64,000 nt of DNA. Source: Escherichia coli. Lineage in GTDB: Bacteria; Pseudomonadota; Gammaproteobacteria; Enterobacterales; Enterobacteriaceae. A program made the position numbers and the translations under genes. The stretch lies in the NCBI RefSeq assembly GCF_017348835.2, contig NZ_CP071375.1. One strand, 5' to 3'. The notes beneath the pieces were generated by a model. It saw only the letters and a program-made list of their open reading frames with translations. It was not told the DNA's origin and ran no database searches. How positions within the stretch are numbered: the stretch's first letter is position 1; each line of letters begins with the position of its first letter. Shown here piece after piece: positions 1-32,298 of the stretch.

Positions 1-320
1 CCTTTCGCCAGATCGCCTTCTTCCGTATCGGGATGCAACTGCGCCACGCTCATTGAGGGCGTGGGTGTGACGTAATTGGGGCTGACCACTTCCAGCAGGC
101 GCTGGGTGAAACGGGGGAATTCAGCGTCAATTTTTAGCTGCGTGCGGGCGGTCAGGAAGCTGAAGGCCTCGACCATTCGCTCTACATACGGATCGGCAAT
201 ATCCGTTCCCTGCATGCCCAGCCGGGCGGCGACTTTGGGATGACGGGCGGCAAATTCGGCTCCCGTTTCCCGCAGATAGCTTAGTTCGCGGTTGTAGTAT
301 TCCAGTAGCCGTGGATCCAT
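1..320 (-). CDS. tssF: T6SS baseplate subunit TssF, N-terminal part only (gene runs off the window start)
   Basis: Reverse-strand translation from the ATG at 320 gives [71 protein letters not shown]..., matching the conserved TssF/ImpG N-terminus. Not in the ORF track because no stop lies within the window. Confidence 0.7.
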
Positions 321-425
321 CGGTCTCTCTCTGAATTAAAAAAACGTAATGCGGCTCTGCTCCATATCCAGCGCGCTACGTACGCGGGTTCAGCCGTAAC
401 CGATGTATCTGGTGCCGCCGAGGAG

Positions 426-2591
426 ATGGCAGAACAGGCAGCGGCGGACCTGTTTGGTGCGTTGCCGGAACCGTCAGGTCTGGTTAAAGCCGCAGTAGCT
501 GCTGCGCAGGCTGCCGCTGCAGCAGCAGGGATCCCGGATATGGCTGGTGCAGTTCAGGATGCGGCGGCGTCGATTGCTGCCGGTGGACCGGGGGCGCATA
601 ACGTCACAGTAAGTGGTAGTGCGGTGCCGCCGCAGCTGCTTTTGTTTGCAGGCATGAATGGTTCGGAAGGGCTTGGAAACCTGTTTTCCTACACAGTACA
701 GCTTAAAACCCCGGATACCCTGAACCTCGGATATGTCTCCCCCGCAGCCAACCTGCCGCTCAAGCCGATGGTGGGCAAAGACCTGTGCGTCAGTATCGAA
801 CTGGACGGCGGCGGCAAACGGCATATCAGCGGGCTGGTGACAGCGGCGCGGGTGGTGGGCTATGAGGGCCGCTCGGTAACGTATGAATTACGCCTTGAGC
901 CGTGGCTGAAACTGCTGACCCATACCAGCGACTACAAAGCGTTCCAGAATAAAACCGTGGTGGATATTCTCGATGAAGTACTGGATGAATATTCCTTTCC
1001 GGTGGAAAAGCGGCTGGTGGAAAATTATCCACCCCGCGCCTGGCAGGTGCAGTATGGTGAAACCGACTTCGATTTCATCCAGCGCCTGATGCAGGAATGG
1101 GGGATTTACTGGTGGTTTGAGCACAGCGAGAACAGCCACACGCTGGTGCTGGCGGATGCCATCAATGGTCATAAAGCGTGCCCTGACTCGCCGCTGGTGG
1201 AGTGGCACCAGGAAGGGCTGAAACTGGACAAGGAATTTATCCACACCATTACGGCCAGTGAGAGGCTGCGTACTGGAAAGTGGGTGATGGACGATTTTGA
1301 TTTTATGAAGCCTCGTTCGCTGCTTAAAAGTACCGTGGCTAGTCCGCGTGATACCGGTCATGCTGAATACGAGCATTATGAATGGCCTGGTGATTACTTC
1401 ACTACGGGCGAAGGCGAGATGCTGACGCGCATTCGTATGGAAGCGCAGCGCAGCCCCGGCAGCCGGGCACATGGGGCAGGTCATATCCGCACCCTCATGA
1501 CGGGTTACACCTTTACGCTGATGAATCATCCAACGGCAGAGGTCAACCAGGAATACCTACTGGTACAGACCACGCTGTTTTTACGGGATAATGCGCAGCA
1601 CAGCGGTCAGGAGCAGCATTTTACCTATGTCACCACGTTTGAACTGCACCCCACCAGCGAAGTTTACCGCCCACAGCGAACCCTAAGCAAACCCCACACC
1701 AAAGGCCCGCAGAGCGCCATCGTCACCGGCCCGGCAGGGCAGGAAATCTGGACGGATAAATATGGCCGGGTGAAGGTGCAGTTTGGCTGGGACCGTTACC
1801 TGTACGATGCGGAACAGCCGTACACGCCGGTGGCCGCCATCACGGGGCGCGGAGAGAGCCGGAAAATCTGGTATTACCACACGGACCTGACGGGCACGGT
1901 ACAGGAGGTGACCGCGCCGGACGGGACGCTGGTGTGGGCGGGCTATCAGGCGGGATTTGGTGAAAACCGGGGCGACATCAGCAACAGCGGGGCGTACTTT
2001 GAGCAGCCGCTGCGGCTGCCGGGGCAGTATTATGATGAAGAGACGGGGCTGCACTATAATCTGTTCAGATATTATGCGCCGGAGTGCGGGAGGTTTATCA
2101 GTCAGGATCCGATTTCGATCCGTGGGGGGCTGAATCTTTACCGGTATGCGCCTAATCCGCTGAGATGGATTGATCCGCTTGGATTAGACTGGAATTATCA
2201 TTTAACAGATAGTGATGGTAAGGTTTATTATCATGGACGTGCAAGTGATAATGCGTCAATGGAAGATGTTGCCCGTCGTCACAGCAATACAACAGGAGCT
2301 GATAAGGCAAGATTTGGAGAAACAGATACCATGACACGAATAACTGAGCCGGGTACGCCAAAATTAACAGCACAAGGTGTGGAAGGTATTGCCATAGGTG
2401 ATAATACTATCGGGCGAAGAGCTGATAACGGTAATAGGGGTCGGGGTAATAATATTCGGGGTGTTAATCCCAATGCAACCAATGCTACTGAAAAACTAAA
2501 TGCGGGTAAAGAATTTTTAAATGGACGAATACCAAGTGAAATGACTGGTGAAACATTGACAGGTAAGGAGTATTTTGAATCAAAATGTTAA
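426..2591 (+). CDS. Chimeric VgrG N-terminal domain fused in frame to Rhs core C-terminus plus C-terminal toxin tip (CT1)
   Basis: 721-aa ORF. Residues ~70-455 carry VgrG motifs ([61 protein letters not shown]). From nt ~1800 the sequence becomes Rhs core ([21 protein letters not shown] ... PxxxxDPLGL, motif at 2172-2186), followed by a ~135-aa AT-rich unique tip. The true start may lie downstream of 426. Confidence 0.7.
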
Positions 2592-3463
2592 AATTAACCG
2601 ATGTAAATAAAAATGCATTAAGAATACTTAAAAAATATAACGTGCTGGCAGAAGGTGACATAATAAGAGGTCATCCATTAAGTGAGCGGGATTTGAAATA
2701 TGTTGAGGCGCATTGTATTACAACTGAAGAACGAGCCTTTTTAAATGAAAAAGGTTTGGGGTTCGGATTTATTTCTGTGACTCATGATGAAGCATTAAGA
2801 GATTCGTTTACATATTTTAAATCTTCTAATAAAAATGATGTGACAGCTTCTTTTCTGGTGAGCCTGAGTAGTGCCAGATTAGACTACAGAAGTGGATTGT
2901 CTGCATTTGCAATTATGCAAACAATGCCGATGCATGGCTTTGAACCAAATCAGGCTTCTTTTTGTAAAGTATGTTCCGCAGAAAAATATAAAAAGCATTT
3001 TGATCTAACCAGCTTAAATCAGACTCGTTTCTTTAGTGGTTCTCTAGCAGTCTTTAAAACTCCTTATGAAATTTCTTTTTTTCTGGAGCAACAATCAAAA
3101 TTGGAAGTCGTTCAGCCAACCGAAAAAGATTTCTCTATCTTTAATGCGATTTTGAAAATAATTGTTGACGCAGAATCTGGCGAAAAACTGACATCAATAA
3201 TTAAAAAAATTAGAGCGATTGATGGCTTCAGGATAACTACAGATCAGTGTCGATGTCTTCTGGAAACGCTGGGATTTTGTGGGATTCTGGAAACGAAGGA
3301 ACACAAAGGGTATCTGACTTACTTTACTAATCCTGGACTGGCTCCGAGTAAATCTCATAGTTCTAACTGGGCCTATCCGGTTGATTTCTGGACCGGAGGG
3401 GATGGAATAAATCGCGAAGCGTTAAAATTCTGGTTTGGTGAATATAAAGAAATTGTTATCTGA
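2585..3463 (+). CDS. Putative immunity protein for CT1 (292 aa, no recognised family)
   Basis: Start codon overlaps the CT1 stop (aATGTTAA); AT-rich like the toxin tip; position immediately after an Rhs CT is typical for immunity genes. Confidence 0.55.
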
Positions 3464-3557
3464 TTAATTATTTTATAAATTTTTAATCGAGGGACGGATG
3501 GAAATCAATGCCGGATCCCCACCAGTACTAACAGGCGAAAATCCGGGAGAACTGATC

Positions 3558-4020
3558 TTACGGTTGAATAAGATCGTCAATAAACACCGCACCGTCAACG
3601 GTACGCAACCAGCGTGGCGCTTTCAGTTTTGCCGCAAAGAACCAGACCAGTTCACAAAGCAGCCCCGTCAGGGGTTGTTCCATTTTAGATCCCTGCGCCT
3701 GTTCCGTCAGGAGCTGGAGTAATACCTCGCAATATTCACACAATTGCTCAGGATCCAGGTCAAAGTGCGGAAATGAGGCAGGCAGGTCGTCGAGTGTCAG
3801 GCTGTCTACCAGATGGGGTGGAATAGGATCGTTCAGCGTGGGAGACAGAATGGCGATACAGGCGCGAAGTCGTCCGAACAACGCCATTTTCAGCGCCGGA
3901 TCGTGACACTCTATAAGGGTTCAGCGAAGCGATCGCAGTGATCGGCCAGGTCTGTGAAATCGGTGGCAGAACTGAAAGGAATGGACAATAAATCATAATC
4001 AGGGGTGAGGACTGTAGCCA
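3558..4020 (-). pseudogene. Hypothetical gene of unknown function, apparently frameshifted
   Basis: ATG at 4020 preceded by a GGAGG Shine-Dalgarno; 36 codons then stop at 3910-3912. A second frame continues as the 109-aa ORF 3558..3887. No family recognised. Confidence 0.3.
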
Positions 4021-4097
4021 TAAGGCAACCTCCGATAAGTAGGCGTTAAAACCACCACCGAAGAGACCAATCTTACGGGTGGTGGAACCGGGCGGAG

Positions 4098-6932
4098 TTG
4101 GTCTTACCGGCCTTATCGGATACCGGCGCATCTTTCGATGCCACCGCCCGGCCCACCATTGAGGTACAGCCGTGCGTGCAACACAAAAAAGACGCTGGCG
4201 CGTCATGTGTCGCCGATAAGACTTATTCAGGAGACCAATCCCGACGCCTGATTTTGCAGACGCGGCATAACGATACAACGATCGCGAAATGGCGACAAAC
4301 CCCTTTCCCGGAAGGCGGCTCGCAAAATCAGAAATATCACAGGGAAAGACAGAGCGCCGCAACGCGGCGGGATGTACCGCTTCACGTACAACGAAAACCA
4401 TTTTCCGGTAGCGGTGGAACTCCCCGGCGAACGCAGGTAACGCTGGAATACGACACCCTGAGCCGGGTGGTGAAAGAGACGGACCCGGCAGGCCGGGTGA
4501 CACAGACGCAGTGGAACGGCAGTTTTGCTGAAATCACGCGCCGGGCACTGGATGACGACCACGTATGGAAGGCGGATTACAACGAACACGGCCAGGTGAT
4601 ACGGGAGACGGACCCGGAAGGGCGCGTCACGCGCTACGGGTATGATGAACAGGGGCTGGCGGTCAGCCGCACGGATGCGCGGGGCGGCGAGGCTGCGCTG
4701 GCGCATGATGCGCGCGGCCAGCTGAGGCGTTACACCGACTGTTCAGGGCGTGCCACGGGTTATGAATACGATGAAGACGGCAACCTGACGGTGGTGACGG
4801 ACGCGGAGGGGAAAACGGTACGTATCCGCTATAACCGTCTGGGACTGCCGGAGACGGTAAATCATCCCGGTAAACAGCAGGACCGTTACACGTGGAACGC
4901 GCTGGGGTTACTGAGCAGCCACCGTCGCATCACAGGCAGTGTGCAGTCCTGGCAGTATACGCCGCGCGGTCTGCTGGCGCTCCACGTAGATGAAGAGAAA
5001 CGGGAGACGCGCTGGCATTATACCGCGGAGGGATGGATTGCCAGTCTGAGCAACGGCAACGGAGCGCTTTACCGGTTCAGTCACGATGCGGACGGACGGC
5101 TGACGGGAGAACAGCGCCCGGACGGTCTGATACGGATGTTTGTGCTGAATGCGGGCGGGTATCCGGTCATCATCCAGACGCAGGGTACAGAAGGCGGGGG
5201 GCGCAATGAACAGCAGGAGCGTGACGCGCTGGGCCGCCTGCTGCGCAGTGACACGCAGCACAGTACACGGACCTTCAGCTACAACCGTCTTGACCAGATA
5301 ACGGAAGTGACGCTCACCCCGACGAAAGAAGGGGAACGGCTGCACCACATGCAGGCGGACACGGTGCGCTTTGCGTATGACCGCAGCGGCTGGCTGACGG
5401 CAGAGCACAGCGTGCACGGCAGCATAAAATATCAGCGTGACGCGCTGGGCAATCCCACCGATATCACGTTGCCGGACGGGCAGCATCTCAGTCATCTTTA
5501 CTACGGCAGCGGACATCTGCTCCAGACGGCACTGGACGGTATCACGGTCAGCGAATATGAGCGTGACAGTCTGCACCGTCAGGTGATGCGCACGCAGGGG
5601 AAACTGGCGACGTTCAGCGGCTACAACGCCGACAACCGGTTAAGCTGGCAGCGCAGTCTGCCAGGTGGCAGCCAGAATCCACAGCAGACCGGTAACCCCC
5701 CGGCGCAGAACGACAGCGTGACGGCGCGGGACTATATCTGGAATGCGGACGGTGAGGTCGGCGGCATCAATGACAAACTGCGCGGTTGCCTGGTGTTCAG
5801 CTATGACCGCAGCGGCTGGCTGACCAGTCGCACGGGTCAGATGTACGACCATGACCATTATTATTACGACAAAGCGGGCAACCTGCTGACGGACGAGTAT
5901 CAGAGCGCGGTGATGGATAACCGCCTGCCGGGCTACGGGCGTGACCGTTACCGCTATAACGAATGGGGCGAACTGACAGAGCGCAGGGACCAGCAACTGG
6001 AGTGGAATGCGCAGGGCCAGTTAACGCGGGTCATCAGCAGCAACAGCGAGACGCGGTATCAGTATGATGCGCTGGGCAGGCGTATCAGCAAGGCGACCAG
6101 CAATCTCCATACCGACCGGGGAGAACGAAGCCGGACAACGTTTGTGTGGGAAGGGGTCCGGCTGTTGCAGGAGACAACGTGGCAGGGAAAGCGGACGTAC
6201 CTGTACGACGCGGAACAGCCGTACACGCCGGTGGCCGCCATCACCGGGCGCGGAGAGAGCCGGAAAATCTGGTATTACCACACGGACCTGACGGGCACGG
6301 TACAGGAGGTGACCGCGGCGGACGGGACGCTGGTGTGGGCGGGCTATCAGGCGGGGTTCGGAGAAAACCGGGGCGACATCAGCAACAGCGGGGCGTATTT
6401 TGAACAGCCGCTGCGGCTGCCGGGGCAGTATTATGATGAAGAGACGGGGCTGCACTATAATCTGTTCAGATATTATGCGCCGGAGTGCGGGAGGTTCGTA
6501 AGCCAGGATCCGATTTCGATCCGGGGTGGTCTGAATCTTTACCGGTATGCGCCGAATCCGATTACTTGGATCGATCCGTGGGGATTGGCAAAGGGGGATT
6601 ATGGTAAAATGCCTACGTTCCCTGGTTGGCAGAAACATCATAATATTCCACAAAATATGGCTACTCATTCGGCAATTGTTGACTCTGGATTTGATATACA
6701 TAATAGTCGTAACATTACAACCTTGCCAAAAACTGGAAGTATAGATACTGCCAGAACAGTGCACAGTGGAATGCACACAGGAGATTATGACAGGATGGTA
6801 AAAAATGCTTTAGATCAAATTGACTCGTTGAATGCTTCCCCTGAGATCAAAAAAATGCATATAGAAGCCTTATCTGATGATATTGGCAATAAATTGAGAA
6901 CAAAACAAATTACGTTAAATGCTGCATGTTGA
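4098..6932 (+). CDS. Orphan rhs fragment (N-terminally truncated core with YD repeats) with toxin tip CT2
   Basis: 944-aa ORF; YD-repeat Rhs core similarity begins near nt 4330 with a frame break just upstream. Core ends at DPWGL (6573-6587), then a ~115-aa tip containing WQKHHNIPQ and a downstream His (HSGMHTGDY), possibly an HNH/AHH-type nuclease. Confidence 0.7.
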   Translation: MVLPALSDTGASFDATARPTIEVQPCVQHKKDAGASCVADKTYSGDQSRRLILQTRHNDTTIAKWRQTPFPEGGSQNQKYHRERQSAATRRDVPLHVQRKPFSGSGGTPRRTQVTLEYDTLSRVVKETDPAGRVTQTQWNGSFAEITRRALDDDHVWKADYNEHGQVIRETDPEGRVTRYGYDEQGLAVSRTDARGGEAALAHDARGQLRRYTDCSGRATGYEYDEDGNLTVVTDAEGKTVRIRYNRLGLPETVNHPGKQQDRYTWNALGLLSSHRRITGSVQSWQYTPRGLLALHVDEEKRETRWHYTAEGWIASLSNGNGALYRFSHDADGRLTGEQRPDGLIRMFVLNAGGYPVIIQTQGTEGGGRNEQQERDALGRLLRSDTQHSTRTFSYNRLDQITEVTLTPTKEGERLHHMQADTVRFAYDRSGWLTAEHSVHGSIKYQRDALGNPTDITLPDGQHLSHLYYGSGHLLQTALDGITVSEYERDSLHRQVMRTQGKLATFSGYNADNRLSWQRSLPGGSQNPQQTGNPPAQNDSVTARDYIWNADGEVGGINDKLRGCLVFSYDRSGWLTSRTGQMYDHDHYYYDKAGNLLTDEYQSAVMDNRLPGYGRDRYRYNEWGELTERRDQQLEWNAQGQLTRVISSNSETRYQYDALGRRISKATSNLHTDRGERSRTTFVWEGVRLLQETTWQGKRTYLYDAEQPYTPVAAITGRGESRKIWYYHTDLTGTVQEVTAADGTLVWAGYQAGFGENRGDISNSGAYFEQPLRLPGQYYDEETGLHYNLFRYYAPECGRFVSQDPISIRGGLNLYRYAPNPITWIDPWGLAKGDYGKMPTFPGWQKHHNIPQNMATHSAIVDSGFDIHNSRNITTLPKTGSIDTARTVHSGMHTGDYDRMVKNALDQIDSLNASPEIKKMHIEALSDDIGNKLRTKQITLNAAC

Positions 6933-6947
6933 ATAACGAGGGAATAT

Positions 6948-7538
6948 ATGATTTATTTTTTATCTGATAAAAAAAATACCTTCGGGTTGTTGCATTATGA
7001 TCATAAAACTTCGATCGACTACACAGTATTTAATGAGGGGGTTAGCATAACAGGAATAGACATTAATATTAAATATACATCAAACAATAAAAATGATTTA
7101 AAACGGCTCGAAAAGTGTAACATTATAGAAACGACAGGTCCGACATTGATAAATAATAAGATTAGACATGTTTTTGAAAAATATGCAAGCAATGCGGTTG
7201 AATTTTTTGATGTAGACATTAACGATGATATAGATTTATCAAGGAAGTTTTGTGCGATTAATTTATTATGGGTCTTACCATGTTGTGATATGGAAAAGAG
7301 TGAATTTACATTAAGTAATTTCGATCTTGCCAATCCTAACTATATGTTTATGTATAAAGTTCTAAAAAATGATATTAATAGAGAGGTGGATATATTTCGG
7401 TGTAAGGAGCAGCATACTGAAATTGTTGTAAGTGAAGGAGTTAAGCAAGCATGTATGGACGCGGGAATTAAAGGATTGCGTTTTTGTACGGCTATTGATT
7501 TAACTCCAAAAAATAGATCTGAGTGTGTATTTATTTAA
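6948..7538 (+). CDS. Putative immunity protein for CT2 (196 aa)
   Basis: AT-rich ORF 15 bp downstream of the CT2 stop, same strand. Confidence 0.5.
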   Translation: MIYFLSDKKNTFGLLHYDHKTSIDYTVFNEGVSITGIDINIKYTSNNKNDLKRLEKCNIIETTGPTLINNKIRHVFEKYASNAVEFFDVDINDDIDLSRKFCAINLLWVLPCCDMEKSEFTLSNFDLANPNYMFMYKVLKNDINREVDIFRCKEQHTEIVVSEGVKQACMDAGIKGLRFCTAIDLTPKNRSECVFI

Positions 7539-7559
7539 TATATATGTATCACGCGGTGC

Positions 7560-9656
7560 GGGTATGACGAACAGTTCCTGCCGGAGACGGTCAGCCACCC
7601 CGGTAAACAGCAGGACCGTTACACCTGGAACGCACTGGGGTTACTGAGCAGCCATCGTCGCATCACGGGCAGTGTGCAGTCCTGGCAGTATACGCCGCGC
7701 GGGATGCTGGCGCGCCATACGGATGAAGAGAAACGGGAGACGCGCTGGCAGTACACCCCGGAAGGGCTGGTTGCCAGTCTGAGCAACGGCAACGGAGCGC
7801 TTTACCGGTTCAGTCACGATGCGGACGGACGGCTGACGGGAGAACAGCGCCCGGACGGTCTGATACGGATGTTTGTGCTGAATGCGGGCGGGTATCCGGT
7901 CATCATCCAGACGCAGGGTACAGAAGGCGGGGGGCGCAATGAACAGCAGGAGCGTGACGCGCTGGGCCGCCTGCTGCGCAGTGACACGCAGCACAGTACA
8001 CGGACCTTCAGCTACAACCGTCTTGACCAGATAACGGAAGTGACGCTCACCCCCACGGAAGAAGGGGAACGGCTGCACCACATGCAGGCGGACACGGTGC
8101 GCTTTGCGTATGACCGCAGCGGCTGGCTGACGGCAGAGCACAGCGTGCACGGCAGCATAAAATATCAGCGTGACGCGCTGGGCAATCCCACCGACATCAC
8201 GTTACCGAACGGGCAGCACCTCAGCCATCTTTACTACGGCAGCGGGCATCTGCTCCAGACGGCACTGGACGGTATCACGGTCAGTGAATATGAGCGTGAC
8301 AGTCTGCACCGTCAGGTGATGCGCACGCAGGGGAAACTGGCGACGTTCAGCGGCTACAACGCCGACAACCGGTTAAGCTGGCAGCGCAGCCTGCCAGGTG
8401 GCAGCCAGAACCCACAGCAGGCCGGTAACCCCCCGGCGCAGAAAGACAGCGTGACAGCGCGGGATTATATCTGGAACGCAGACGGTGAAGTCGGCGGCAT
8501 CAATGACAAACTGCGCGGTTGCCTGGTGTTCAGCTATGACCGCAGCGGCTGGCTGACCAGTCGCACGGGTCAGATGTACGACCATGACCATTATTATTAC
8601 GACAAAGCGGGCAATCTGCAGACGGATGAGCATCAGGGAGCGGTGCCGGATAACCGCCTGCCGGGCTACGGGCGTGACCGCTACCGCTATAACGAATGGG
8701 GCGAACTGACAGAGCGCAGGGACCAGCAACTGGAGTGGAATACGCAGGGCCAGTTAACGCGGGTCATCAGCAGCAACAGCGAGACGCGGTATCAGTATGA
8801 TGCGCTGGGCAGGCGTATCAGCAAGGCGACCAGCAATCTCCATACCGACCGGGGAGAACGAAGCCGGACAACGTTTGTGTGGGAAGGGTTCCGGCTGTTG
8901 CAGGAGACAACGTGGCAGGGAAAGCGGACATACCTGTACGACGCGGAACAGCCGTACACGCCGGTGGCGGCCATCACGGGGCGCGGAGAGAGCCAGAAAA
9001 TCTGGTATTACCACACGGACCTGACGGGCACGGTACACGAGGTAACCGCGCCGGACGGGACGCTGGTGTGGGCGGGCTACCAGGCGGGATTTGGCGAAAA
9101 CCGGGGCGACATCAGCAACAGCGGGGCGTACTTTGAGCAGCCGCTGCGACTGCCGGGGCAGTACTTTGACGAAGAAACAGGGCTGCATTACAATCTGTTC
9201 AGGTATTATGCGCCGGAGTGCGGGAGGTTCGTAAGCCAGGATCCGATAGGGTTGCTTGGTGGGCTGAACTTATATGCTTATGCGCCTAATCCGCTGTCAT
9301 GGATCGATCCGTTAGGTTTGACTCCATGTGCAAATGGGGGGAATGCTAAAAAACATGGTGGCACAGGACATAATAATTTTATTGATAATCTTATTGCGGA
9401 TGCTCGCAGTCAGGGTGCTACAAATATCAGGAAAAACCAATGGCAGGTAGATGTTAATGGAAATGTTGTTGGTAAAAATAGACCGGATGTTCAATTTGAT
9501 TTAAATGGTAAACATTATAATATTGAGGTTGATACAACAATAAAAGGCAGCGTTGGTCACCAAAATACTATACCTACACTTGATCCCAACTCAAGAAATA
9601 CATTTTGGCTAATTGATGACTTAGGGAATATTTTAAATGGCCACTCAACCATCTGA
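7560..9656 (+). CDS. Orphan rhs fragment with toxin tip CT3
   Basis: Rhs core similarity starts ~7560 (ORF-track start 7674). DPLGL at 9306-9320, then a ~110-aa tip with RPDVQF ... NIEVDTTIK, possibly a PD-(D/E)xK-like nuclease. Core is near-identical to the next fragment at an offset of 2586 bp. Confidence 0.7.
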   Translation, partial: GYDEQFLPETVSHPGKQQDRYTWNALGLLSSHRRITGSVQSWQYTPRGMLARHTDEEKRETRWQYTPEGLVASLSNGNGALYRFSHDADGRLTGEQRPDGLIRMFVLNAGGYPVIIQTQGTEGGGRNEQQERDALGRLLRSDTQHSTRTFSYNRLDQITEVTLTPTEEGERLHHMQADTVRFAYDRSGWLTAEHSVHGSIKYQRDALGNPTDITLPNGQHLSHLYYGSGHLLQTALDGITVSEYERDSLHRQVMRTQGKLATFSGYNADNRLSWQRSLPGGSQNPQQAGNPPAQKDSVTARDYIWNADGEVGGINDKLRGCLVFSYDRSGWLTSRTGQMYDHDHYYYDKAGNLQTDEHQGAVPDNRLPGYGRDRYRYNEWGELTERRDQQLEWNTQGQLTRVISSNSETRYQYDALGRRISKATSNLHTDRGERSRTTFVWEGFRLLQETTWQGKRTYLYDAEQPYTPVAAITGRGESQKIWYYHTDLTGTVHEVTAPDGTLVWAGYQAGFGENRGDISNSGAYFEQPLRLPGQYFDEETGLHYNLFRYYAPECGRFVSQDPIGLLGGLNLYAYAPNPLSWIDPLGLTPCANGGNAKKHGGTGHNNFIDNLIADARSQGATNIRKNQWQVDVNGNVVGKNRPDVQFDLNGKHYNIEVDTTIKGSVGHQNTIPTLDPNSRNTFWLIDDLGNILNGHSTI

Positions 9657-10221
9657 TAATAAAAAATTAGTGTTTGCTGTAGTGAACAGTGATTTTAATG
9701 ATATAGAAAGAACTATCCATAATGGATTGAACTGGCCGAGTGAACCAATAAGTAGTCGAAAACTTATTGAGGAAATACACTTGACTATTCAACGTGGTGG
9801 GGTCTTGCCGTCCGAGGGGGTTTTCTATTATCCGTGTATAAATGACAGCAAATTAATTTTTCTGTCTAATTTATCTGATGGATGGGACTCTTTACTTTAT
9901 TGCCTGTCAAAACAGAATAAATCTAGCTATCTACTGTTTAGGTTATTGATGGGGGAATACCCTCTGATGGAAATGAGTTTTATAGAGTCAGGGAAAACAA
10001 TACGTTTAATTAGAGTGATAAAAGAAAATAAATGGATTTTTTATGAGGTCGGGGAACCGTTATGGTTTGAAGAAAAGGAAAACTATTCAAAAAGAAGAAT
10101 CGCAGATAGAATTACTTATGATCTCTTACTCTCCTATTCACGGAAAAATGGCATTGACTTTGATTCCCCCGCATTTTTTAAAACGGAAAAAGAATCACTA
10201 TGGTTGAATGAAATACGATAG
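9637..10221 (+). CDS. Putative immunity protein for CT3 (194 aa)
   Basis: Overlaps the CT3 stop by 20 bp; AT-rich. Confidence 0.5.
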   Translation: MATQPSDNKKLVFAVVNSDFNDIERTIHNGLNWPSEPISSRKLIEEIHLTIQRGGVLPSEGVFYYPCINDSKLIFLSNLSDGWDSLLYCLSKQNKSSYLLFRLLMGEYPLMEMSFIESGKTIRLIRVIKENKWIFYEVGEPLWFEEKENYSKRRIADRITYDLLLSYSRKNGIDFDSPAFFKTEKESLWLNEIR

Positions 10222-10234
10222 TTTATTTAAATAA

Positions 10235-10272
10235 AAAGCCGGAAAAGAAATTAAACTTTCCCGGCTTTTTTA
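10235..10272. terminator. Hairpin plus T-tract, likely bidirectional intrinsic terminator
   Basis: aaagccgg ... ccggcttttttatt between the immunity-3 stop and the convergent SymE-like gene. Confidence 0.5.
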
Positions 10273-10276
10273 TTAT

Positions 10277-10457
10277 TTAACTCTCGTTCAGCACACTAAA
10301 CATCCCGTCCCGCATCCCCTTAACTGCCTGTTTAACCTGATAAAGCTCCCTGCGCAGTTCCTGTACTTCGTTGTTATCCGCAAGCAGGATCAGACATCCC
10401 TCCGAGATCTTCACGGTAACGCCCGTGCCGATCTCAAATCCCGCTTCTCTCAGCCAT
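10277..10457 (-). pseudogene. SymE-like toxin gene, 5'-truncated by the adjacent rhs fragment boundary
   Basis: C-terminal 60 aa (AKWLREAGFEIGTGVTVKISEGCLILLADNNEVQELRRELYQVKQAVKGMRDGMFSVLNES) resemble SymE ([28 protein letters not shown]). Similarity ends where rhs core sequence starts at ~10458. Confidence 0.55.
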
Positions 10458-12335
10458 TTGGCGCTGAATGCGGGCGGGTTTCCGGTCATCATCCAGACGC
10501 AGGGCACAGAGGGCGGGGTGCGTAATGAGCGGCAGGAGCGTGATGCGCTGGGCCGCCTGCTGCGCAGTGACACGCAGCACAGTACACGGACCTTCAGCTA
10601 CAACCGTCTTGACCAGATAACGGAAGTGACGCTCACCCCCACGGAAGAAGGGGAACGGCTGCACCACATGCAGGCGGACACGGTGCGCTTTGCGTATGAC
10701 CGCAGCGGCTGGCTGACGGCAGAGCACAGCGTGCACGGCAGCATAAAATATCAGCGTGACGCGCTGGGCAATCCCACCGACATCACGTTACCGAACGGGC
10801 AGCACCTCAGCCATCTTTACTACGGCAGCGGGCATCTGCTCCAGACGGCACTGGACGGTATCACGGTCAGTGAATATGAGCGTGACAGTCTGCACCGTCA
10901 GGTGATGCGCACGCAGGGGAAACTGGCGACGTTCAGCGGCTACAACGCCGACAACCGGTTAAGCTGGCAGCGCAGCCTGCCAGGTGGCAGCCAGAACCCA
11001 CAGCAGGCCGGTAACCCCCCGGCGCAGAAAGACAGCGTGACAGCGCGGGATTATATCTGGAACGCAGACGGTGAAGTCGGCGGCATCAATGACAAACTGC
11101 GCGGTTGCCTGGTGTTCAGCTATGACCGCAGCGGCTGGCTGACCAGTCGCACGGGTCAGATGTACGACCATGACCATTATTATTACGACAAAGCGGGCAA
11201 TCTGCAGACGGATGAGCATCAGGGAGCGGTGCCGGATAACCGCCTGCCGGGCTACGGGCGTGACCGCTACCGCTATAACGAATGGGGCGAACTGACAGAG
11301 CGCAGGGACCAGCAACTGGAGTGGAATACGCAGGGCCAGTTAACGCGGGTCATCAGCAGCAACAGCGAGACGCGGTATCAGTATGATGCGCTGGGCAGGC
11401 GTATCAGCAAGGCGACCAGCAATCTCCATACCGACCGGGGAGAACGAAGCCGGACAACGTTTGTGTGGGAAGGGTTCCGGCTGTTGCAGGAGACAACGTG
11501 GCAGGGAAAGCGGACATACCTGTACGACGCGGAACAGCCGTACACGCCGGTGGCGGCCATCACGGGGCGCGGAGAGAGCCAGAAAATCTGGTATTACCAC
11601 ACGGACCTGACGGGCACGGTACACGAGGTAACCGCGCCGGACGGGACGCTGGTGTGGGCGGGCTACCAGGCGGGATTTGGTGAAAACCGGGGCGACATCA
11701 GCAACAGCGGGGCGTACTTTGAGCAGCCGCTGCGGCTGCCGGGGCAGTATTATGATGAAGATACGGGGCTGCACTATAATCTGTTCAGATATTATGCGCC
11801 GGAGTGCGGGCGGTTTATCAGTCAGGACCCGATAGGGCTGGCGGGAGGAATAAACCTATATGCTTATGCGCCTAATCCGCTAAGTTATATTGATCCTCTT
11901 GGGCTTTGTAAATTAAGGGGAAGCGATGGGCGCTACAGAAGTGCACAGAATATTCAGGAAGAAATAGGCGGCCTACCCAATTTTGCAGGAAAAACTCCAG
12001 GAGAAATACGACAAACTTTGCGTAATCGAGGTTATTCGTCGGTACAAGCGTATAGTGGAGGAGAGGTCTGGACAAAAGCATTACCTGACGGAAATACTGT
12101 TGCAGTGAGGCTTGATCCGGCAAATCCTCGCTCACCTTCACATTATGCTGATGCTGTACCTCATGCTCATATTGAAACAGTTCCAACATCCAGTGTTTCT
12201 AATGGGAATTATCGCCCGCGAGACGTGACTGGCAGGCATACTGCCACTGGTGGGGTTTCTGATCGAGGAACAAATCCGAATCATAACGCTGATGTTTACA
12301 TTCCAATGTCTCCGGGACGATTCCCATATGATTAA
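10458..12335 (+). CDS. Orphan rhs fragment with toxin tip CT4
   Basis: Rhs core similarity from ~10458 (ORF-track start 10371 is a read-through of the SymE antisense). DPLGL at 11892-11906, then a ~143-aa unique tip with no recognised family. Confidence 0.7.
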   Translation: MALNAGGFPVIIQTQGTEGGVRNERQERDALGRLLRSDTQHSTRTFSYNRLDQITEVTLTPTEEGERLHHMQADTVRFAYDRSGWLTAEHSVHGSIKYQRDALGNPTDITLPNGQHLSHLYYGSGHLLQTALDGITVSEYERDSLHRQVMRTQGKLATFSGYNADNRLSWQRSLPGGSQNPQQAGNPPAQKDSVTARDYIWNADGEVGGINDKLRGCLVFSYDRSGWLTSRTGQMYDHDHYYYDKAGNLQTDEHQGAVPDNRLPGYGRDRYRYNEWGELTERRDQQLEWNTQGQLTRVISSNSETRYQYDALGRRISKATSNLHTDRGERSRTTFVWEGFRLLQETTWQGKRTYLYDAEQPYTPVAAITGRGESQKIWYYHTDLTGTVHEVTAPDGTLVWAGYQAGFGENRGDISNSGAYFEQPLRLPGQYYDEDTGLHYNLFRYYAPECGRFISQDPIGLAGGINLYAYAPNPLSYIDPLGLCKLRGSDGRYRSAQNIQEEIGGLPNFAGKTPGEIRQTLRNRGYSSVQAYSGGEVWTKALPDGNTVAVRLDPANPRSPSHYADAVPHAHIETVPTSSVSNGNYRPRDVTGRHTATGGVSDRGTNPNHNADVYIPMSPGRFPYD

Positions 12336-12346
12336 TGTGAGGTTTT

Positions 12347-12610
12347 ATGAATATCCGAAATCAATATAATGAAGCCTTAAATAAATTAGAAGTTGATGTT
12401 AATGATGGTTTGAGAGATTTAATAAACATATATTGTGTGGCTATTGATTCTTTTGAAAATGATATCGTTGACTCGATTGCTTTATACGTGATTGATATGG
12501 GAAATAAAGATACTTGTCGATATCTACAAGAAGTCTTATCAGAGAATGAAGATCCTTATTTAGTAAAAGAATTTAATGCATGGATAAAAGAAATTAAGAA
12601 AAAATATTAA
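12347..12610 (+). CDS. Putative immunity protein for CT4 (87 aa)
   Basis: AT-rich ORF 11 bp after the CT4 stop. Confidence 0.5.
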   Translation: MNIRNQYNEALNKLEVDVNDGLRDLINIYCVAIDSFENDIVDSIALYVIDMGNKDTCRYLQEVLSENEDPYLVKEFNAWIKEIKKKY

Positions 12611-12615
12611 AATAA

Positions 12616-12655
12616 AAGCCGGGAAGGTTATAAAATCTTCCCGGCTTTTTATTTT
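12616..12655. terminator. Intrinsic terminator hairpin (9-bp stem gccgggaag/cttcccggc) with T-tract
   Basis: Perfect inverted repeat followed by tttttattttt. Confidence 0.6.
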
Positions 12656-12900
12656 TAATTCTCGTTCAGTACACTAAACATCCCGTCCCGCATCCCCTTA
12701 ACCGCCTGTTTAACCTGATAAAGTTCCCTGCGCAGTTCCTGTACTTCGTTGTTATCGGCAAGCAGGATCAGGCAGCCTTCCGAGATCTTCACAGTAACGC
12801 CCGTGCCGATCGAAAATTCCGCTTCTCTCAGCCATTTGGCGCTGATTTTGATCACCGGCGTGTCGCTGCTGTTGGGCAGATATCCTACGGTACAACGGCG
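12655..12900 (-). CDS. SymE-like toxin homologue (AbrB-fold type I toxin family), possibly defective at its start
   Basis: 66-aa track ORF begins at a GTG; the SymE-like frame extends further upstream (TPEVTISKTQRRCTVGY...) with no in-frame ATG, while an ATG sits in another frame. Confidence 0.5.
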   Translation of the reverse strand, partial: RRCTVGYLPNSSDTPVIKISAKWLREAEFSIGTGVTVKISEGCLILLADNNEVQELRRELYQVKQAVKGMRDGMFSVLNEN

Positions 12901-13001
12901 TTGTGTTTTGGAAATGGTGACTTCTGGCGTAATATCATGTTTAAGTTAGGGGCTTTCGTAGTCATACCCCGACTCTCCCCGGCCCTAAACACAACCCCCA
13001 C

Positions 13002-17704: not shown

Positions 17705-17850
<146 letters not shown>

Positions 17851-19388: not shown

Positions 19389-19543
19389 ACTGCTTATTCC
19401 TTGATAAAACGGTTACACACGCCAGGACGGCAAAATGGATCCCAAATCGGAATAGTCTGGATTTGGAAGGCTCACATTATCACCAAAAGAGTTTTACGCA
19501 AGCCTGTCGGCGCAGGGTTTACAAATTTCATCGGAAGCGGGCT

Positions 19544-19822
19544 TTACCCAAAGAGCACCGCGTGAGTTCCAGTTCTCTCAAATCGTAAAAGTTTATCGGT
19601 AAGTTTGTAAATCAGGAGCCAGTCCGGTTCGACATGAGCATCGCGATAACCTTTCCATGAACCCTGCAGCGGGTGGTCTTTATAAACAGCTGGAAGCGGT
19701 AAAGTATTATTGATAAGAAGCGTCATAAGATATTTCAATTTATTCATATCATTATGACGCTTTTGTGCAAGTTTTACATCCTTTGAAAATTGTCCCGAGT
19801 ATTCAATATCCCTTTGAATCAT
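19544..19822 (-). CDS. yafQ: Type II toxin YafQ (RelE-like mRNA interferase)
   Basis: 92-aa product MIQRDIEYSGQFSKDVKLAQKRH... Confidence 0.9.
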   Translation of the reverse strand: MIQRDIEYSGQFSKDVKLAQKRHNDMNKLKYLMTLLINNTLPLPAVYKDHPLQGSWKGYRDAHVEPDWLLIYKLTDKLLRFERTGTHAVLFG

Positions 19823-19824
19823 AT

Positions 19825-20085
19825 TTAAATTCCTAATTTATCAAATAAATCATCGGCGTCTTTGGCCTTATGAACATCAACGCCAGCTTCGCTGTTTTTG
19901 ATTGATTGAATGGTTAATTGATTAGGCTCGCGTAAATCAAACGGCAATGCCTTTTCACGCGCGACCTTTGTGAGGGTTATGCGAACCAGGTCAGAGATGG
20001 TCAGCCCCATCCCGGCCAGTACGTCCGCCGCCTGATTCTTCAGATCTTCATCGATTCGGGCGCGAACAAATGCATTTGCAGCCAT
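19825..20085 (-). CDS. dinJ: Antitoxin DinJ
   Basis: 86-aa product MAANAFVRARIDEDLKNQAADVLAGMGLTISD... Confidence 0.9.
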   Translation of the reverse strand: MAANAFVRARIDEDLKNQAADVLAGMGLTISDLVRITLTKVAREKALPFDLREPNQLTIQSIKNSEAGVDVHKAKDADDLFDKLGI

Positions 20086-20101
20086 TGGGGTATCTCCTGT
20101 G

Positions 20102-20117
20102 CTGTATATATATTCAG
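20102..20117. promoter_or_regulatory. Putative LexA (SOS) box upstream of dinJ-yafQ
   Basis: CTGTATATATATTCAG, one mismatch to CTGT-N8-ACAG. Confidence 0.5.
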
Positions 20118-20294
20118 CTTGAATTGTAGCTCAATTGAGCAACAGCGGCAATTCATGAGCAATTCAATAAACTGATGTATTTACATAATTCACTGAAATA
20201 TATATGTTAATTTTATAATAATGGTTTATTAAGTTTGTTCAGAAACGATCCGGGATACACTGCAACATTAAAGCATGACCAGCCATTATTGAGT

Positions 20295-21044
20295 ATGTCC
20301 TTGCCGTCGATTCCATCCTTTGTATTGTCGGGATTACTGTTGATTTGTTTGCCGTTTTCTTCATTTGCCAGCGCCACCACATCACATATCTCTTTCAGCT
20401 ACGCCGCCCGCCAGCGGATGCAAAACCGTGCGCGTTTATTAAAACAGTACCAAATCCATCTGAAAAAACAGGCCAGCTATATTGTGGAAGGCAATGCCGA
20501 AAGCAGAAGGGCGCTACGCCTGCACAACCGCGAACAGATAAAACAGCACCCGGAGTGGTTTCCTGGTCCGCTCAAGGCGAACGACCGACGCTGGCAGGCG
20601 CTCGCAGAAAACAACCATTTCTTAAGCAGCGACCACCTGCATAACATCACCGAAGTGGCGATTCACCGCCTAGAGCAGCAGCTTGGCAAGCCTTACGTCT
20701 GGGGCGGCACGCGGCCCGATAAAGGCTTCGACTGTAGCGGGTTGGTTTTTTATGCCTACAACAAGATCCTTGAGGCGAAGCTCCCGCGCACGGCCAATGA
20801 GATGTATCACTACCGCCGGGCAACGATTGTGGCGAATAACGACCTGCGCCGGGGAGATTTGCTGTTTTTCCATATTCACAGTCGTGAGATTGCCGACCAT
20901 ATGGGGGTGTATCTGGGCGATGGGCAATTTATCGAGTCGCCACGCACCGGGGAAACCATTCGGGTAAGCCAGTTAGCTGAACCTTTCTGGCAGGACCATT
21001 TTTTGGGCGCGCGCAGGATTTTGACGGAAGAGACGATTTTGTAA
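20295..21044 (+). CDS. yafL: NlpC/P60-family lipoprotein peptidase YafL
   Basis: MSLPSIPSFVLSGLLLICLPFSSFA... signal/lipobox-like N-terminus; Cys-containing DCSGLV motif. Confidence 0.85.
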   Translation: MSLPSIPSFVLSGLLLICLPFSSFASATTSHISFSYAARQRMQNRARLLKQYQIHLKKQASYIVEGNAESRRALRLHNREQIKQHPEWFPGPLKANDRRWQALAENNHFLSSDHLHNITEVAIHRLEQQLGKPYVWGGTRPDKGFDCSGLVFYAYNKILEAKLPRTANEMYHYRRATIVANNDLRRGDLLFFHIHSREIADHMGVYLGDGQFIESPRTGETIRVSQLAEPFWQDHFLGARRILTEETIL

Positions 21045-21100
21045 ATGGGTAATATTGACGAACTGGCAAAAGGCCGGATGCCACACGGCATCCGACTTGT

Positions 21101-21457
21101 TTACATCTGGGCTGAAAACTCACGTTCTAAGACATCAACAATGAGCTGGTTTTTTGAAATGGAATGTTGTCTGGCGACGATGGTCAGCCGCGAATCAATG
21201 TGATGAGGAACACGAAGCGTCAGGCGTTTTTGCTCTTCTTCTTCACGAAAAGGGGCAATACCGTCCTCTTCACAATCCGCCATCCACTCATCCAGCGCGC
21301 TTTCGCCCTCACGATATAATGCCTCAATGCTTGTGGCTACAAAGTCACAATAACCGTTTACATTGAGGAATTTGCCGCGAAATGCATTGATATCGGCTTC
21401 AAATGTCACTGCGGCTGGTTGACCTTTAATTGTGATAATGTTCGATGCTTTATTCAT
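21101..21457 (-). CDS. HicB-like antitoxin (N-terminal HicB fold, C-terminal ribbon-helix-helix)
   Basis: 118 aa; ...FEADINAFRGKFLNVNGYCDFVATSIEAL...EDGIAPF... then RLTLRVPHHIDSRLTIVARQHSISKNQLIVDVLEREF. Confidence 0.5.
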   Translation of the reverse strand: MNKASNIITIKGQPAAVTFEADINAFRGKFLNVNGYCDFVATSIEALYREGESALDEWMADCEEDGIAPFREEEEQKRLTLRVPHHIDSRLTIVARQHSISKNQLIVDVLEREFSAQM

Positions 21458-21749
21458 AATCTACCCCTACACAGTTAACAAACCACTCCTTAAGACCTGC
21501 TACTGCGCCTTTATCCATCACATTCTTTGGATGTGGCTCATGTGTACTGAATTTGGTCGTTCCAATCTGAAATTTCCTTCTGGACCCATTGTTATTTTTT
21601 ATTGTTCCACCCACCGCTTTAATGAGCGCAACAACATCATCCCATTTAATTCCAGATTTTGGCGGCTCCGTCATTACATCGTCGAATGTTTTTCTATGGC
21701 GGGAGCCTAGCGCGCTGACCTTAATCATACTATCAATCCATGACATCAT
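21450..21749 (-). CDS. HicA-like toxin (start uncertain; may be shorter than the 99-aa ORF)
   Basis: ...GSRRKFQIGTTKFSTHEPHPKNVMDKGAVAGLKEWF resembles the HicA signature; stop overlaps the HicB-like start. Confidence 0.45.
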   Translation of the reverse strand: MMSWIDSMIKVSALGSRHRKTFDDVMTEPPKSGIKWDDVVALIKAVGGTIKNNNGSRRKFQIGTTKFSTHEPHPKNVMDKGAVAGLKEWFVNCVGVDYE

Positions 21750-21832
21750 TGTATGGTGTCATCGTAGTATGTTTGCAATGTGACGTCAATCAATGGTGTC
21801 AGATGCATGCAAAGCATGGAAAAGAATCCCCA

Positions 21833-26400: not shown

Positions 26401-26828
26401 CAAGACGTCGCGGTAACAGTGCTGGAAACAGAAACAGGTCGTTACTCTGACACCCTGCGTTCAGCGCTGGTTTCTCTGAATGGCGACAACGCATGGGCAT
26501 TAAGCGAAAGCTGGTATGGCACTATTCAGTGGATTTGTCGGAGTCCGTATCGCCCACATCATGGGCGTAAAAACTGGTTTCTGGGCATTGGGCGTTTTAC
26601 TGCTGATGAGCAGGAACAATCCGACGCGGTCCGTTATGAGACGCTGCGTTCGTCGGGGCCGGGCGGTCAACATGTCAATAAAACCGATTCGGCGGTGCGC
26701 GCCACGCATCTGGCTACCTGGATTAGCGTGAAGGTTCAGTCAGAGCGCAGCCAGCATGCCAACAAGCGGCTGGCACGATTGCTGATTGAACCGCCCCGGG
26801 TTTCCTGGAGAGTGTTTTATCTGTGAAC

Positions 26829-27716: not shown

Positions 27717-28042
27717 TATTTTTTCCAGAGGCGGTCGAACTCCGCCTTCGCAAAATAAGCGGAAGCCTGGCGAAGGATATCGTTACTGCGGCGCAGTTCA
27801 CGATTTTCACGTTCCAGCTCTTTCAGACGCTGACGTTCAGCGGTGGTGAGTCCACCATCACCACTCCCGGTATCCCGCTCATGCTGGCGAACCCAGACAC
27901 GCAGAGTCTCCGGCGTACAGCCAATCTTTGGGGCAATGGAACAAATTGCCGCCCACTGTGAGTCATATTCATCCTGACTTTCCAGAACCATACGAATCGC
28001 CCGCTGACGGACTTCGGGGGAAAAACGAGTATTTTTAGTCAT
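27716..28042 (-). CDS. IS629-like transposase OrfA
   Basis: 108 aa, [26 protein letters not shown]..., helix-turn-helix. Confidence 0.85.
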
Positions 28043-28288
28043 CCTGTTTACCTCTTTCTCAGGGAGTTTAGTCTCCAGGATTTCCGGGGCGGTTCAGATT
28101 GCCTGGAAGCTGGAGCAACAGCAACAGGAAAATAGCGCAGTGCTGAAATCGCAGCGGCGAATGTTCCATCACCAGATTGAACGTGGCAACCCGCGACGAA
28201 CGTTTACAGGGATGGCTTTTATCGAAGGATAATGAAGGATGAAACTGCCGGAAGGCGATTAAACGCCATCCGGCAGCAAATCAAATAA

Positions 28289-29746: not shown

Positions 29747-30006
29747 GTTAAGTCTCCTTGTCGATCACCCGCAAAACAGTATTGCAGGTCACAGGGTTAG
29801 CAGAAAATGTTGTCAACACAAGACATGCTTGCGAGATATGTTTGAGAATACCACTTTATCCCGCGTCAGGGAGAGGCAGTGCGTAAAAAGACGCGGACTC
29901 ATGTGAAATACTGGTTTTTAGTGCGCCAGATCTCTATAATCTCGCGCAACCTATTTTCCCCTCGAACACTTTTTAAGCCGTAGATAAACAGGCTGGGACA
30001 CTTCAC

Positions 30007-31801: not shown

Positions 31802-32260
<459 letters not shown>

Positions 32261-32269
32261 GTGAAATGT

Positions 32270-32291: not shown

Positions 32292-32298
32292 ATAATCA

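Follow-up and report, generated by a model that had tools for sequence, protein, structure and literature searches.

Displaced Rhs toxin/immunity cassettes at a decayed type VI secretion locus of Escherichia coli

What is left of a type VI secretion system (T6SS) effector site after the weapon has been lost, and may the remnant still be of use to its carrier? This question is raised by a 64,000-nt stretch of Escherichia coli DNA (RefSeq contig NZ_CP071375.1; hereafter the window), which holds an array of four Rhs toxin/immunity cassettes in its first 13 kb. Each cassette consists of the 3' end of an rhs core, a predicted C-terminal toxin domain (the tip) and, downstream, a predicted immunity gene. 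What we see is a decayed state of a known arrangement, Rhs C-terminal displacement with orphan modules. Our best explanation of the whole, which we consider probable, is that displaced orphan cassettes lie at a decayed T6SS-1 site and likely have a protective role. Of its parts, the array almost certainly represents orphans left by displacement and deletion, while continued protection by the immunity genes is an evenly balanced matter. Since Rhs C-terminal displacement and orphan modules are textbook, the architecture teaches nothing new. The locus does offer a clean case, from nature, of a T6SS effector site that has lost its weapon, with both junctions mapped to the base and all frames intact, and it bears on the debate whether orphan modules are kept for immunity, for toxin-antitoxin-like functions or for nothing.

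Architecture of the array and the two deletions

All four core fragments ended in a DP[LW]GL motif on the plus strand, and the motifs started exactly where a preliminary description of this DNA had placed them (nt 2172, 6573, 9306 and 11892). The cores had a GC content of 0.59-0.61, the tips of 0.36-0.46 and the downstream open reading frames (ORFs) of 0.26-0.36, compared with 0.51 in the whole window. The downstream ORFs lay on the same strand as the tips at spacings of -7, +15, -20 and +11 nt. The claim of AT-rich tips followed at near-zero spacing by AT-rich ORFs was thus borne out, and the ORF lengths (292, 196, 194 and 87 amino acids, aa) agreed. The tips measured 134, 114, 111 and 142 aa after the motif; the lengths given earlier (135, 115, 112 and 143 aa) were each one too high because the stop codon had been counted. 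Furthermore, the "three truncated rhs cores" of that description turned out to be four core fragments, none of full length, of which the first is fused to a truncated vgrG.

The array shows the Rhs hallmark of a YD-repeat core ending in PxxxxDPxGL and followed by a variable toxin, with a sharp drop in GC content after the motif. The motif pattern reflects homology rather than chance, because the four 300-nt stretches that lead up to the motifs are direct repeats of one another (94-97% identical) and the core fragments align with the 3' part of the annotated full-length rhs of PapRG-06-5 (94-96% identity). A second motif, DPIGL, occurs in cores 3 and 4, 22 codons upstream of the terminal one, and is part of the conserved core. 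The four tips are mutually unrelated. The proposed polymorphic-toxin architecture with orphan modules therefore stands, on the identity to rhs, the shared boundary, the unrelated tips and the rhs names given by the Prokaryotic Genome Annotation Pipeline (PGAP). The longest core fragment covers nt ~1529-3753 of the 4125-nt rhs and the shortest nt 3364-3753; no fragment has the complete shell and the N-terminal PAAR/VgrG-binding region that make an Rhs protein competent for delivery.

The locus lies at the distal end of the T6SS-1 island of E. coli, between aspV and yafV. Over window positions 1-13000 the DNA agreed at 100% identity with the chromosome of E. coli PE164, which was isolated from a pig in Nanjing. 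In PE164, PGAP annotated tssG and tssF (minus strand), a vgrG pseudogene, four RHS repeat-associated core features (three pseudogenes and one short protein-coding gene), a SymE-family gene and then yafV, ivy and fadE, the downstream neighbours of the array. It also named an AHH-domain protein, an imm11-family protein and three hypothetical proteins at the immunity positions. The PE164 record holds only tssG, an ImpA-family gene, tRNA-Asp and dnaQ 5' of tssF, and no tssB/C, hcp, clpV or tssK/L/M is annotated in it between aspV and yafV. The T6SS machinery kept in the island of the PE164/F2_81 lineage consists of tssA (ImpA family), tssG and tssF only. The genome paper of PE164 makes no mention of T6SS or Rhs.

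E. coli F2_81, a pig isolate from Australia, matched positions 1-13000 at 98.8% identity across 91% of their length. Among 5426 complete genomes searched, none besides PE164 and F2_81 carried at least 80% of this region, and the cassettes had 2, 2, 3 and 24 carriers. Cassettes 1 and 2 occurred at 100% identity in both PE164 and F2_81. In 14EC033 the same island has decayed differently and is riddled with the insertion sequences (IS) IS2 and IS3.

We mapped the window onto the loci of PapRG-06-5 (L002) and 14EC033 (L008) to place the core fragments and the junctions (Table 1). The reference locus of PapRG-06-5 comprises vgrG (2214 nt), a DcrB-related gene (EagR), a 4125-nt rhs, an immunity gene, a small minus-strand gene and an orphan rhs fragment; in the 14EC033 locus, tssF and tssE lie at 30641-32524 and 32540-33034. 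The junction of the first deletion was found at nt 387, where the 3' end of tssE is joined to nt 97 of vgrG. Because tssE runs directly into vgrG, all T6SS genes normally between the two are gone, together with the start of vgrG. The second deletion, of 4.56 kb and in frame, joined vgrG nt 1509 to rhs nt 3364 at a 3-bp TAC microhomology between the two parents (nt 1797-1799). It removed the 3' third of vgrG, eagR and 82% of the main rhs. The vgrG fragment is thus without its first 32 codons and its 3' third, and PGAP lists it as a pseudogene "missing N-terminus and C-terminus". No intact vgrG, eagR (DUF1795/DcrB-related), PAAR/N-terminal region, complete Rhs shell or set of T6SS core genes was present at the array locus; the relatives PapRG-06-5 and A20 have vgrG and eagR (DcrB-related) in intact linkage.

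Both junctions were present in F2_81. We rejected an assembly artefact as the source of the vgrG-rhs fusion, because this independent complete genome shares it and because the fusion-derived protein WP_259394526.1 and its cluster occur on several contigs. In E. coli E2348/69 (L006, NC_011601.1 1641567-1644436), at the ansP-pptA locus, another truncated vgrG ("phage late control D", C-terminus missing) abuts a truncated rhs, so that deletion fusions of this kind may be recurrent. A cassette 4 homologue (94.5% identical) and a SymE-family gene follow at the same locus of E2348/69.

Table 1. Features of the array and its flanks, in window coordinates. Percentages are identities to the reference loci L002 (PapRG-06-5) and L008 (14EC033).
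Feature	Position (strand)	Description
tssF 5' end (1-320) and last ~52 nt of tssE (336-387)	1-386 (-)	99.5% to L008 32205-32591; PGAP annotates tssF
vgrG fragment	387-1799 (+)	nt 97-1509 of the 2214-nt vgrG; 99.0% to L002 4001-5413
Chimeric ORF, 721 aa	426-2591 (+)	VgrG' (internal ATG start), last ~130 aa of Rhs core, tip 1
rhs core fragment 1	1797-2186 (+)	0.39 kb; rhs nt 3364-3753; DPLGL 2172-2186; 94.4% to L002 rhs 9970-10359
Tip 1, 134 aa	2187-2591 (+)	Toxin domain without recognised fold class
imm1, 292 aa	2585-3463 (+)	Predicted cognate immunity protein of tip 1
Hypothetical gene, frameshifted	3558-4021 (-)	PGAP; intact 154-aa form in PapRG-06-5
C4 antisense RNA	4075-4163 (-)	Phage-type; Rfam gathering-level, 70.6 bits
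isrK Hfq-binding RNA	4185-4263 (-)	Phage-type; Rfam gathering-level, 65.8 bits
rhs core fragment 2	4364-6587 (+)	2.2 kb; rhs nt ~1529-3753; DPWGL 6573-6587; 95.5% to L002 8135-10358; in PGAP an RHS pseudogene, frameshifted, N-terminus missing
Tip 2, 114 aa	6588-6932 (+)	AHH-family HNH/EndoVII nuclease domain; Pfam PF14412, i-E 1.4e-14, model 7-110 of 111
imm2, 196 aa	6948-7538 (+)	Imm11 family; Pfam PF07791, i-E 1.4e-11, model 67-191 of 194
rhs core fragment 3	7578-9320 (+)	1.74 kb; rhs nt ~2011-3752; DPLGL 9306-9320; 94.4% to L002 8617-10358
Tip 3, 111 aa	9321-9656 (+)	Predicted PD-(D/E)xK-like (restriction-endonuclease fold) nuclease
imm3, 194 aa	9637-10221 (+)	Predicted cognate immunity protein of tip 3
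SymE-family gene, 5'-truncated	10277-10492 (-)	Pfam SymE_toxin PF08845, model 27-52 only (1.5e-6); PGAP name
rhs core fragment 4	10458-11906 (+)	1.44 kb; rhs nt ~2310-3743; DPLGL 11892-11906; 93.9-95.5% to L002 rhs copies
Tip 4, 142 aa	11907-12335 (+)	Predicted PT7-like metal-dependent DNase toxin
imm4, 87 aa	12347-12610 (+)	Predicted cognate immunity protein of tip 4
Terminator-like hairpin	12614-12649 (+)	Strong; 16-bp stem and T run, 4 nt after the imm4 stop; end of array
Second SymE-like remnant	12655-12855 (-)	Island right edge by yafV; annotated SymE family in F2_81 and 14EC033

E. coli T6SS-1 islands with vgrG(O1)-eagR-rhs and downstream truncated Rhs C-terminal/immunity modules have been described before (bioRxiv 10.1101/2024.03.05.583533, which cites Ma et al. 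on PAAR-Rhs C-terminal toxins). Like these islands, the relatives of our locus have vgrG, a DcrB/DUF1795 EagR gene, a full-length rhs, an immunity gene and PAAR-less rhs fragments including Rhs-AHH, and the PxxxxDPxGL boundary is shared. In contrast, here vgrG is cut at both ends, and eagR, the 5' part of the main rhs and the T6SS structural genes are gone; moreover, tips 1, 3 and 4 are absent from the toxins named in that study. The array also resembles the rhs orphans of Salmonella (PMC7043789) and the orphan modules of contact-dependent inhibition and Rhs systems (Poole et al. 2011, PMC3150448) in its core homology up to the motif, its unrelated tips and its cognate immunity genes. As in those systems, the orphans are mostly without initiation signals of their own and the immunity genes look expressible. 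However, those systems keep a live main gene upstream, whereas here there is none, and there are four orphans rather than one.

We propose the following history. The site normally holds a vgrG-eagR-rhs effector operon in which the next gene after rhs encodes immunity. By recombination in the conserved core, further tip/immunity blocks are taken up and older ones are displaced downstream as orphans (C-terminal displacement). Four blocks have most probably accumulated in this way, each composed of a core 3' end, a tip and an immunity gene, with a symE flank in blocks 3 and 4. The lineage then underwent the two deletions, from tssE to vgrG codon 33 and from vgrG nt 1509 to rhs nt 3364. With them went the secretion machinery at the locus, the chaperone EagR and, of the main Rhs, the shell and the PAAR/N-terminal part. 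F2_81 carries cassettes 1, 2 and 4 and has lost the equivalent of nt 8558-10694 with cassette 3. Since this loss is the expected product of recombination between core 3 and core 4, core-core recombination appears to be at work.

The four toxin and immunity pairs

The preliminary description had found none of the eight tip and immunity proteins nameable. This view had to be given up for pair 2, which matched both the AHH and the Imm11 model of Pfam, and it held for the other six: tips 1, 3 and 4 and imm1, imm3 and imm4 yielded nothing significant in Pfam, NCBIfam and PHROGs, and sequence and profile searches of the PDB returned only Rhs-core matches or noise. Products imm1, imm3 and imm4 are called "hypothetical protein" in every source. 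Word-indexed searches found only 7-9 close clusters per tip. When 1.84 billion representatives were scanned by HMMER with a chimeric profile of the three tips, 909 matches were obtained. Among the best 150 of these, about 125 concerned the tip 3 domain, 13 tip 1 and 12 tip 4, and nearly all matches listed were confined to the very C-terminal end of their proteins, which reach 3184 aa. The families of tips 1, 3 and 4 were found only in C-terminal position, on Rhs, PT-HINT or other large proteins. No Pfam model matched any of 57 diverse relatives (15 of tip 1, 29 of tip 3 and 13 of tip 4), and a literature search with signature peptides of the three tips returned no relevant paper.

Directly after each tip we found the ORF expected for a cognate immunity gene, at -20 to +15 nt, including Imm11 after AHH. 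This pairing is supported by the fact that homologues of tips 1, 3 and 4 elsewhere precede homologues of the same ORFs. An orphan Rhs fragment of Cellulophaga (Bacteroidota) carries a tip 1 homologue of 48% identity, and the overlapping ORF after it shares 41% identity with imm1 (E 1e-61). Cassette 3 recurs in E. coli A20 (98.9% identical), where it ends a full-length Rhs of 1526 aa behind vgrG and a DcrB-related (EagR) gene, and an imm3 homologue follows. In a metagenome locus (L012), a 65%-identical tip 3 on a 702-aa Rhs precedes a 196-aa ORF 34% identical to imm3 (E 1e-21), and at a further locus (L014) a 64%-identical tip 4 has directly behind it a 90-aa ORF with 41% identity to imm4 (E 2e-21). 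These conserved neighbourhoods are the best support that sequence analysis could give for the view that the downstream ORFs are cognate immunity genes, which would neutralise their tips. The support is limited to the closer subfamilies, because the ORF after the PT-HINT/Rhs tip 3 relative P0178 was unrelated to imm3 and the gene after the tip 1 relative P0140 lay on the opposite strand and was unrelated to imm1. Immunity synteny at larger distance was dropped for this reason. Unrelated neighbours beside distant toxin relatives are usual in polymorphic systems.

Pair 2 is, as judged from its Pfam matches, of a known family, a putative AHH nuclease with Imm11, and PGAP likewise names the two products "AHH domain-containing protein" and "imm11 family protein". 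Compared with the AHH motif, the first residue in tip 2 is K instead of A (KHH).

Several of the pairs had been suspected to be uncharacterised. This suspicion was weakened for tip 4, which has a relative in PT7(Bc), and for tip 3, with its PD-(D/E)xK-like predicted fold, so that pair 1 alone is left without a functional lead. The conserved motifs of tip 3 were HGGxxH(N/D), IRKNQxQ, NRPD56 and E69-x-D71. Its predicted model has the alpha-beta-beta-beta-alpha-beta core fold of the PD-(D/E)xK superfamily, with an invariant P55-D56 before strand 2 and an invariant E69-x-D71 on strand 3. We therefore predict tip 3 to be a PD-(D/E)xK-like nuclease. The E-x-D in place of the canonical (D/E)-x-K, with Asp instead of Lys, counts against this assignment, although the invariant R37 and K38 could stand in for the catalytic Lys. 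No Tox-REase, VRR-Nuc or other Pfam model matched tip 3 or 28 of its relatives. Tip 3 differs from PD-(D/E)xK toxins such as TseV/VRR-Nuc of T6SS (PMC9635880) and Tox-REase in this Asp and in its extra HGGxxH(N/D) and IRKNQ signature. It appears to be the E. coli member of a large family of C-terminal toxins with an atypical PD...ExD site and without a Pfam or NCBIfam model, which accounts for most of the 909 matches.

In tip 4, a PDG motif, R68, D70, D82, H86, H88 and E90 were conserved; D70, D82, H86 and H88 were invariant and E90 nearly so. Its predicted fold matches that of PT7(Bc), which with PIM7(Bc) represents a polymorphic LXG DNase toxin of the type VII secretion system (T7SS) of Bacillus cereus (PDB 8OWU; Nachmias et al., bioRxiv 10.1101/2021.10.19.465003). 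The authors of that study describe the PT7 fold as a new topology and identify D37 and H47 as catalytic in PT7(Bc). Compared with PT7(Bc), tip 4 is about twice as long, owing to N- and C-terminal additions, is carried on an Rhs/T6SS scaffold and has no similarity detectable by HMMER: a profile of 13 tip 4 relatives did not reach 8owu at E <= 10. On the structural match, tip 4 is predicted to be a PT7-like, Mg-dependent DNase; its D70 or D82 and its H86 or H88 are candidate counterparts of D37 and H47 of PT7(Bc). If the structural match reflects homology, the PT7 DNase fold, known from LXG/T7SS toxins of Firmicutes, would extend to the Rhs/T6SS context.

Tip 1 belongs to a small family that was always found C-terminally, after DPxGL. 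Its conserved residues were Y4, Y14/15, G17, R18, R31, H32, E66 and N88. Neither tip 1 itself (Pfam, NCBIfam, PHROG and PDB) nor its relatives (15 in Pfam, 10 in NCBIfam) had any match. For modelling, tips 1 and 3 were joined in a chimeric chain, and fold neighbours were listed for the joint chain. In the AlphaFold2 (AF2) model, the predicted local distance difference test (pLDDT) score of tip 1 was about 80-95 except in residues 71-90, and the predicted fold appears to have no recognisable relative among the PDB matches listed. The conserved Y, YY-G-R, R-H, E and N suggested a GIY-YIG/URI fold. This candidate was not supported: hhalign of tip 1 against T4 GIY-YIG enzymes and Tox-URI2 stayed at noise level, and GIY-YIG structures were absent from the fold lists.

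By homology, the tip 1/imm1 pair appears to be conserved from Enterobacteria to Bacteroidota. The Cellulophaga array (L009, CP002453.1 4263912-4270454) contains an Rhs fragment with a 199-aa ORF, Tox-URI2 with Imm44, the tip 1 and imm1 homologues and further small ORFs, and is a Bacteroidota orphan array built on the same logic. Neither the tip 1/imm1 nor the tip 3 family was found in the literature searched. Pair 1 and tip 3 might tentatively be seen as two undescribed polymorphic-toxin families, a view to which we give somewhat less than even weight. If it is true, the array offers ready-made toxin/immunity pairs to define two new nuclease-toxin families. It provides E. coli representatives, each with its predicted cognate immunity gene, of three toxin domains that are unnamed in curated libraries, and of these tip 3 is widespread on polymorphic-toxin scaffolds.

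Present function of the array

To be fired, an Rhs toxin needs enclosure in a complete shell and, through PAAR, attachment to VgrG. From what is known of Rhs effectors, delivery of the four toxins from the array locus is excluded: with the machinery, EagR and the PAAR/N-terminal and shell parts removed, none of them can be loaded or fired from there. The array could still be offensive if a T6SS elsewhere in the genome delivered the VgrG'-Rhs'-tip 1 chimera, or orphans after recombination. In favour of this, the chimera reads in frame over its 721 aa, five other places in the genome match the vgrG/rhs query, and re-loading of orphans by core recombination is a published model (PMC7043789, PMC3150448). 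However, in the chimera VgrG has lost its N-terminal 32 codons and its C-terminal spike, over 80% of the Rhs shell and the PAAR/N-terminal domain are missing, the EagR gene is deleted, and tssB/C, hcp, clpV and tssK/L/M are not annotated between aspV and yafV. We regard an offensive role as hardly credible.

The most likely remaining role would be protection from neighbours that still fire these toxins; in addition, the cassettes may serve as a recombination reservoir for other rhs loci. All four immunity ORFs were uninterrupted, and three of the four had a Shine-Dalgarno-like sequence at the usual distance, that of imm1 being unusually far upstream. Such signals are consistent with expression of the immunity genes.

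A different explanation is that the array, together with its immunity genes, no longer has any function and is a neutral relic in the course of being lost. The T6SS-1 island has been gutted by two deletions, PGAP calls vgrG and three of the four rhs core fragments pseudogenes, and the symE copies and the spacer gene at 3558-4021 are truncated or frameshifted. Moreover, the cassettes are rare in the species, cassette 3 has already been lost in F2_81, and the related 14EC033 locus is full of IS elements. Such a relic would not be expected to preserve all eight tip and immunity frames, which are nevertheless intact and of full length compared with distant homologues, nor the complete identity of cassettes 1 and 2 between pig isolates from China and Australia. 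On balance, a functionless relic seems unlikely to us, if clearly less far-fetched than an offensive array.

Several observations weigh against our main explanation. The four tips keep not only intact frames but also their conserved residues, which is unlike long neutral decay and gives room for a toxin-dependent role. The rarity of the cassettes (2, 2, 3 and 24 of 5426) implies that the benefit of immunity may be small. Furthermore, PE164 may have a second T6SS, or an unbroken rhs whose core matches, at another site: six places in its genome, the array included, match the vgrG/rhs query.

One toxin-dependent role would be that the orphan cassettes act inside the cell like type II toxin-antitoxin modules and modulate growth or stabilise the locus. 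Internal promoters and start codons in the rhs fragments would yield a little toxin, which a labile immunity protein would keep in check. The retained frames and conserved residues of the tips, despite lost delivery, fit this explanation, as do promoter-like hexamers that were about twice as frequent as in shuffles and included sites within cores and tips. In Salmonella Typhimurium, the main and orphan rhs genes show internal promoters, toxic internal products and a protease-labile RhsI (Starsta et al. 2020, PMC7043789). However, the promoter matches, being consensus hits that cluster in AT-rich DNA, are no proof, and the Salmonella result may not carry over to other tips. We consider toxin-antitoxin-like function improbable, more so than a neutral relic, and prefer orphan cassettes with a likely protective role as the explanation of the locus.

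Flanking elements and the remainder of the window

The truncated SymE-family gene after cassette 3 is cut exactly where core 4 begins. The copy in A20 lies on the opposite strand after cassette 3 and is of full length, covering PF08845 model positions 1-53 of 54 (4.8e-18). Judged by this comparison, the gene at 10277-10492 was apparently cut by the arrival of core fragment 4. Positions 10268-10467 are repeated at 12646-12845 (93% identity over 200 nt). Genes of the SymE family of type I toxins, or their remnants, follow homologous cassettes directly, on the opposite strand, in A20, E2348/69, F2_81 and 14EC033, and symE appears to travel with these Rhs cassettes or to mark their right boundary.

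The spacer between cassettes 1 and 2 (3511-4363) is syntenic with L002 11395-12250 of PapRG-06-5, and its frameshifted gene had no Pfam match. The C4 and isrK RNAs lie on the minus strand just upstream of this gene. An ORF at 4098-6932 overlaps both RNAs on the opposite strand with its first ~90 codons, which are not Rhs sequence.

Positions 26787-46618 of the window are inverted relative to RefSeq NZ_CP114128.1, between inverted IS3 copies (about 26829-28042 and 45363-46576). Each of these copies has an ALIL pseudoknot; one interrupts prfH and the other truncates paoC. The window order prfH-pepD-gpt-frsA-crl-phoE-proBA-thrW-prophage is the usual E. coli order, and it is NZ_CP114128.1 that is flipped. 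A tRNA-Thr (CGT) lies at 36125-36200 (+). The cryptic prophage remnant by thrW, at about 36200-45300 (record 3943081-3951990, mapped through the inversion), looks ordinary and contains an integrase, yfdP-T-like genes, truncated tail tip and tail fibre genes and an Ail/Lom family gene.

Rfam further detected IS009 RNA at 44760-44958 (+, 226 bits) and 51096-51293 (+, 169 bits) and naRNA4/CssrE at 17715-17792 (+, 80 bits), which we take to be known E. coli small-RNA or REP-type elements. Two type II toxin-antitoxin pairs, HicA/HicB and DinJ/YafQ, were located near truncated lateral-flagellar flhA and lafU, at about 19500-21800 (record 3958543-3960727); these genes are usual content of the corresponding E. 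coli region.

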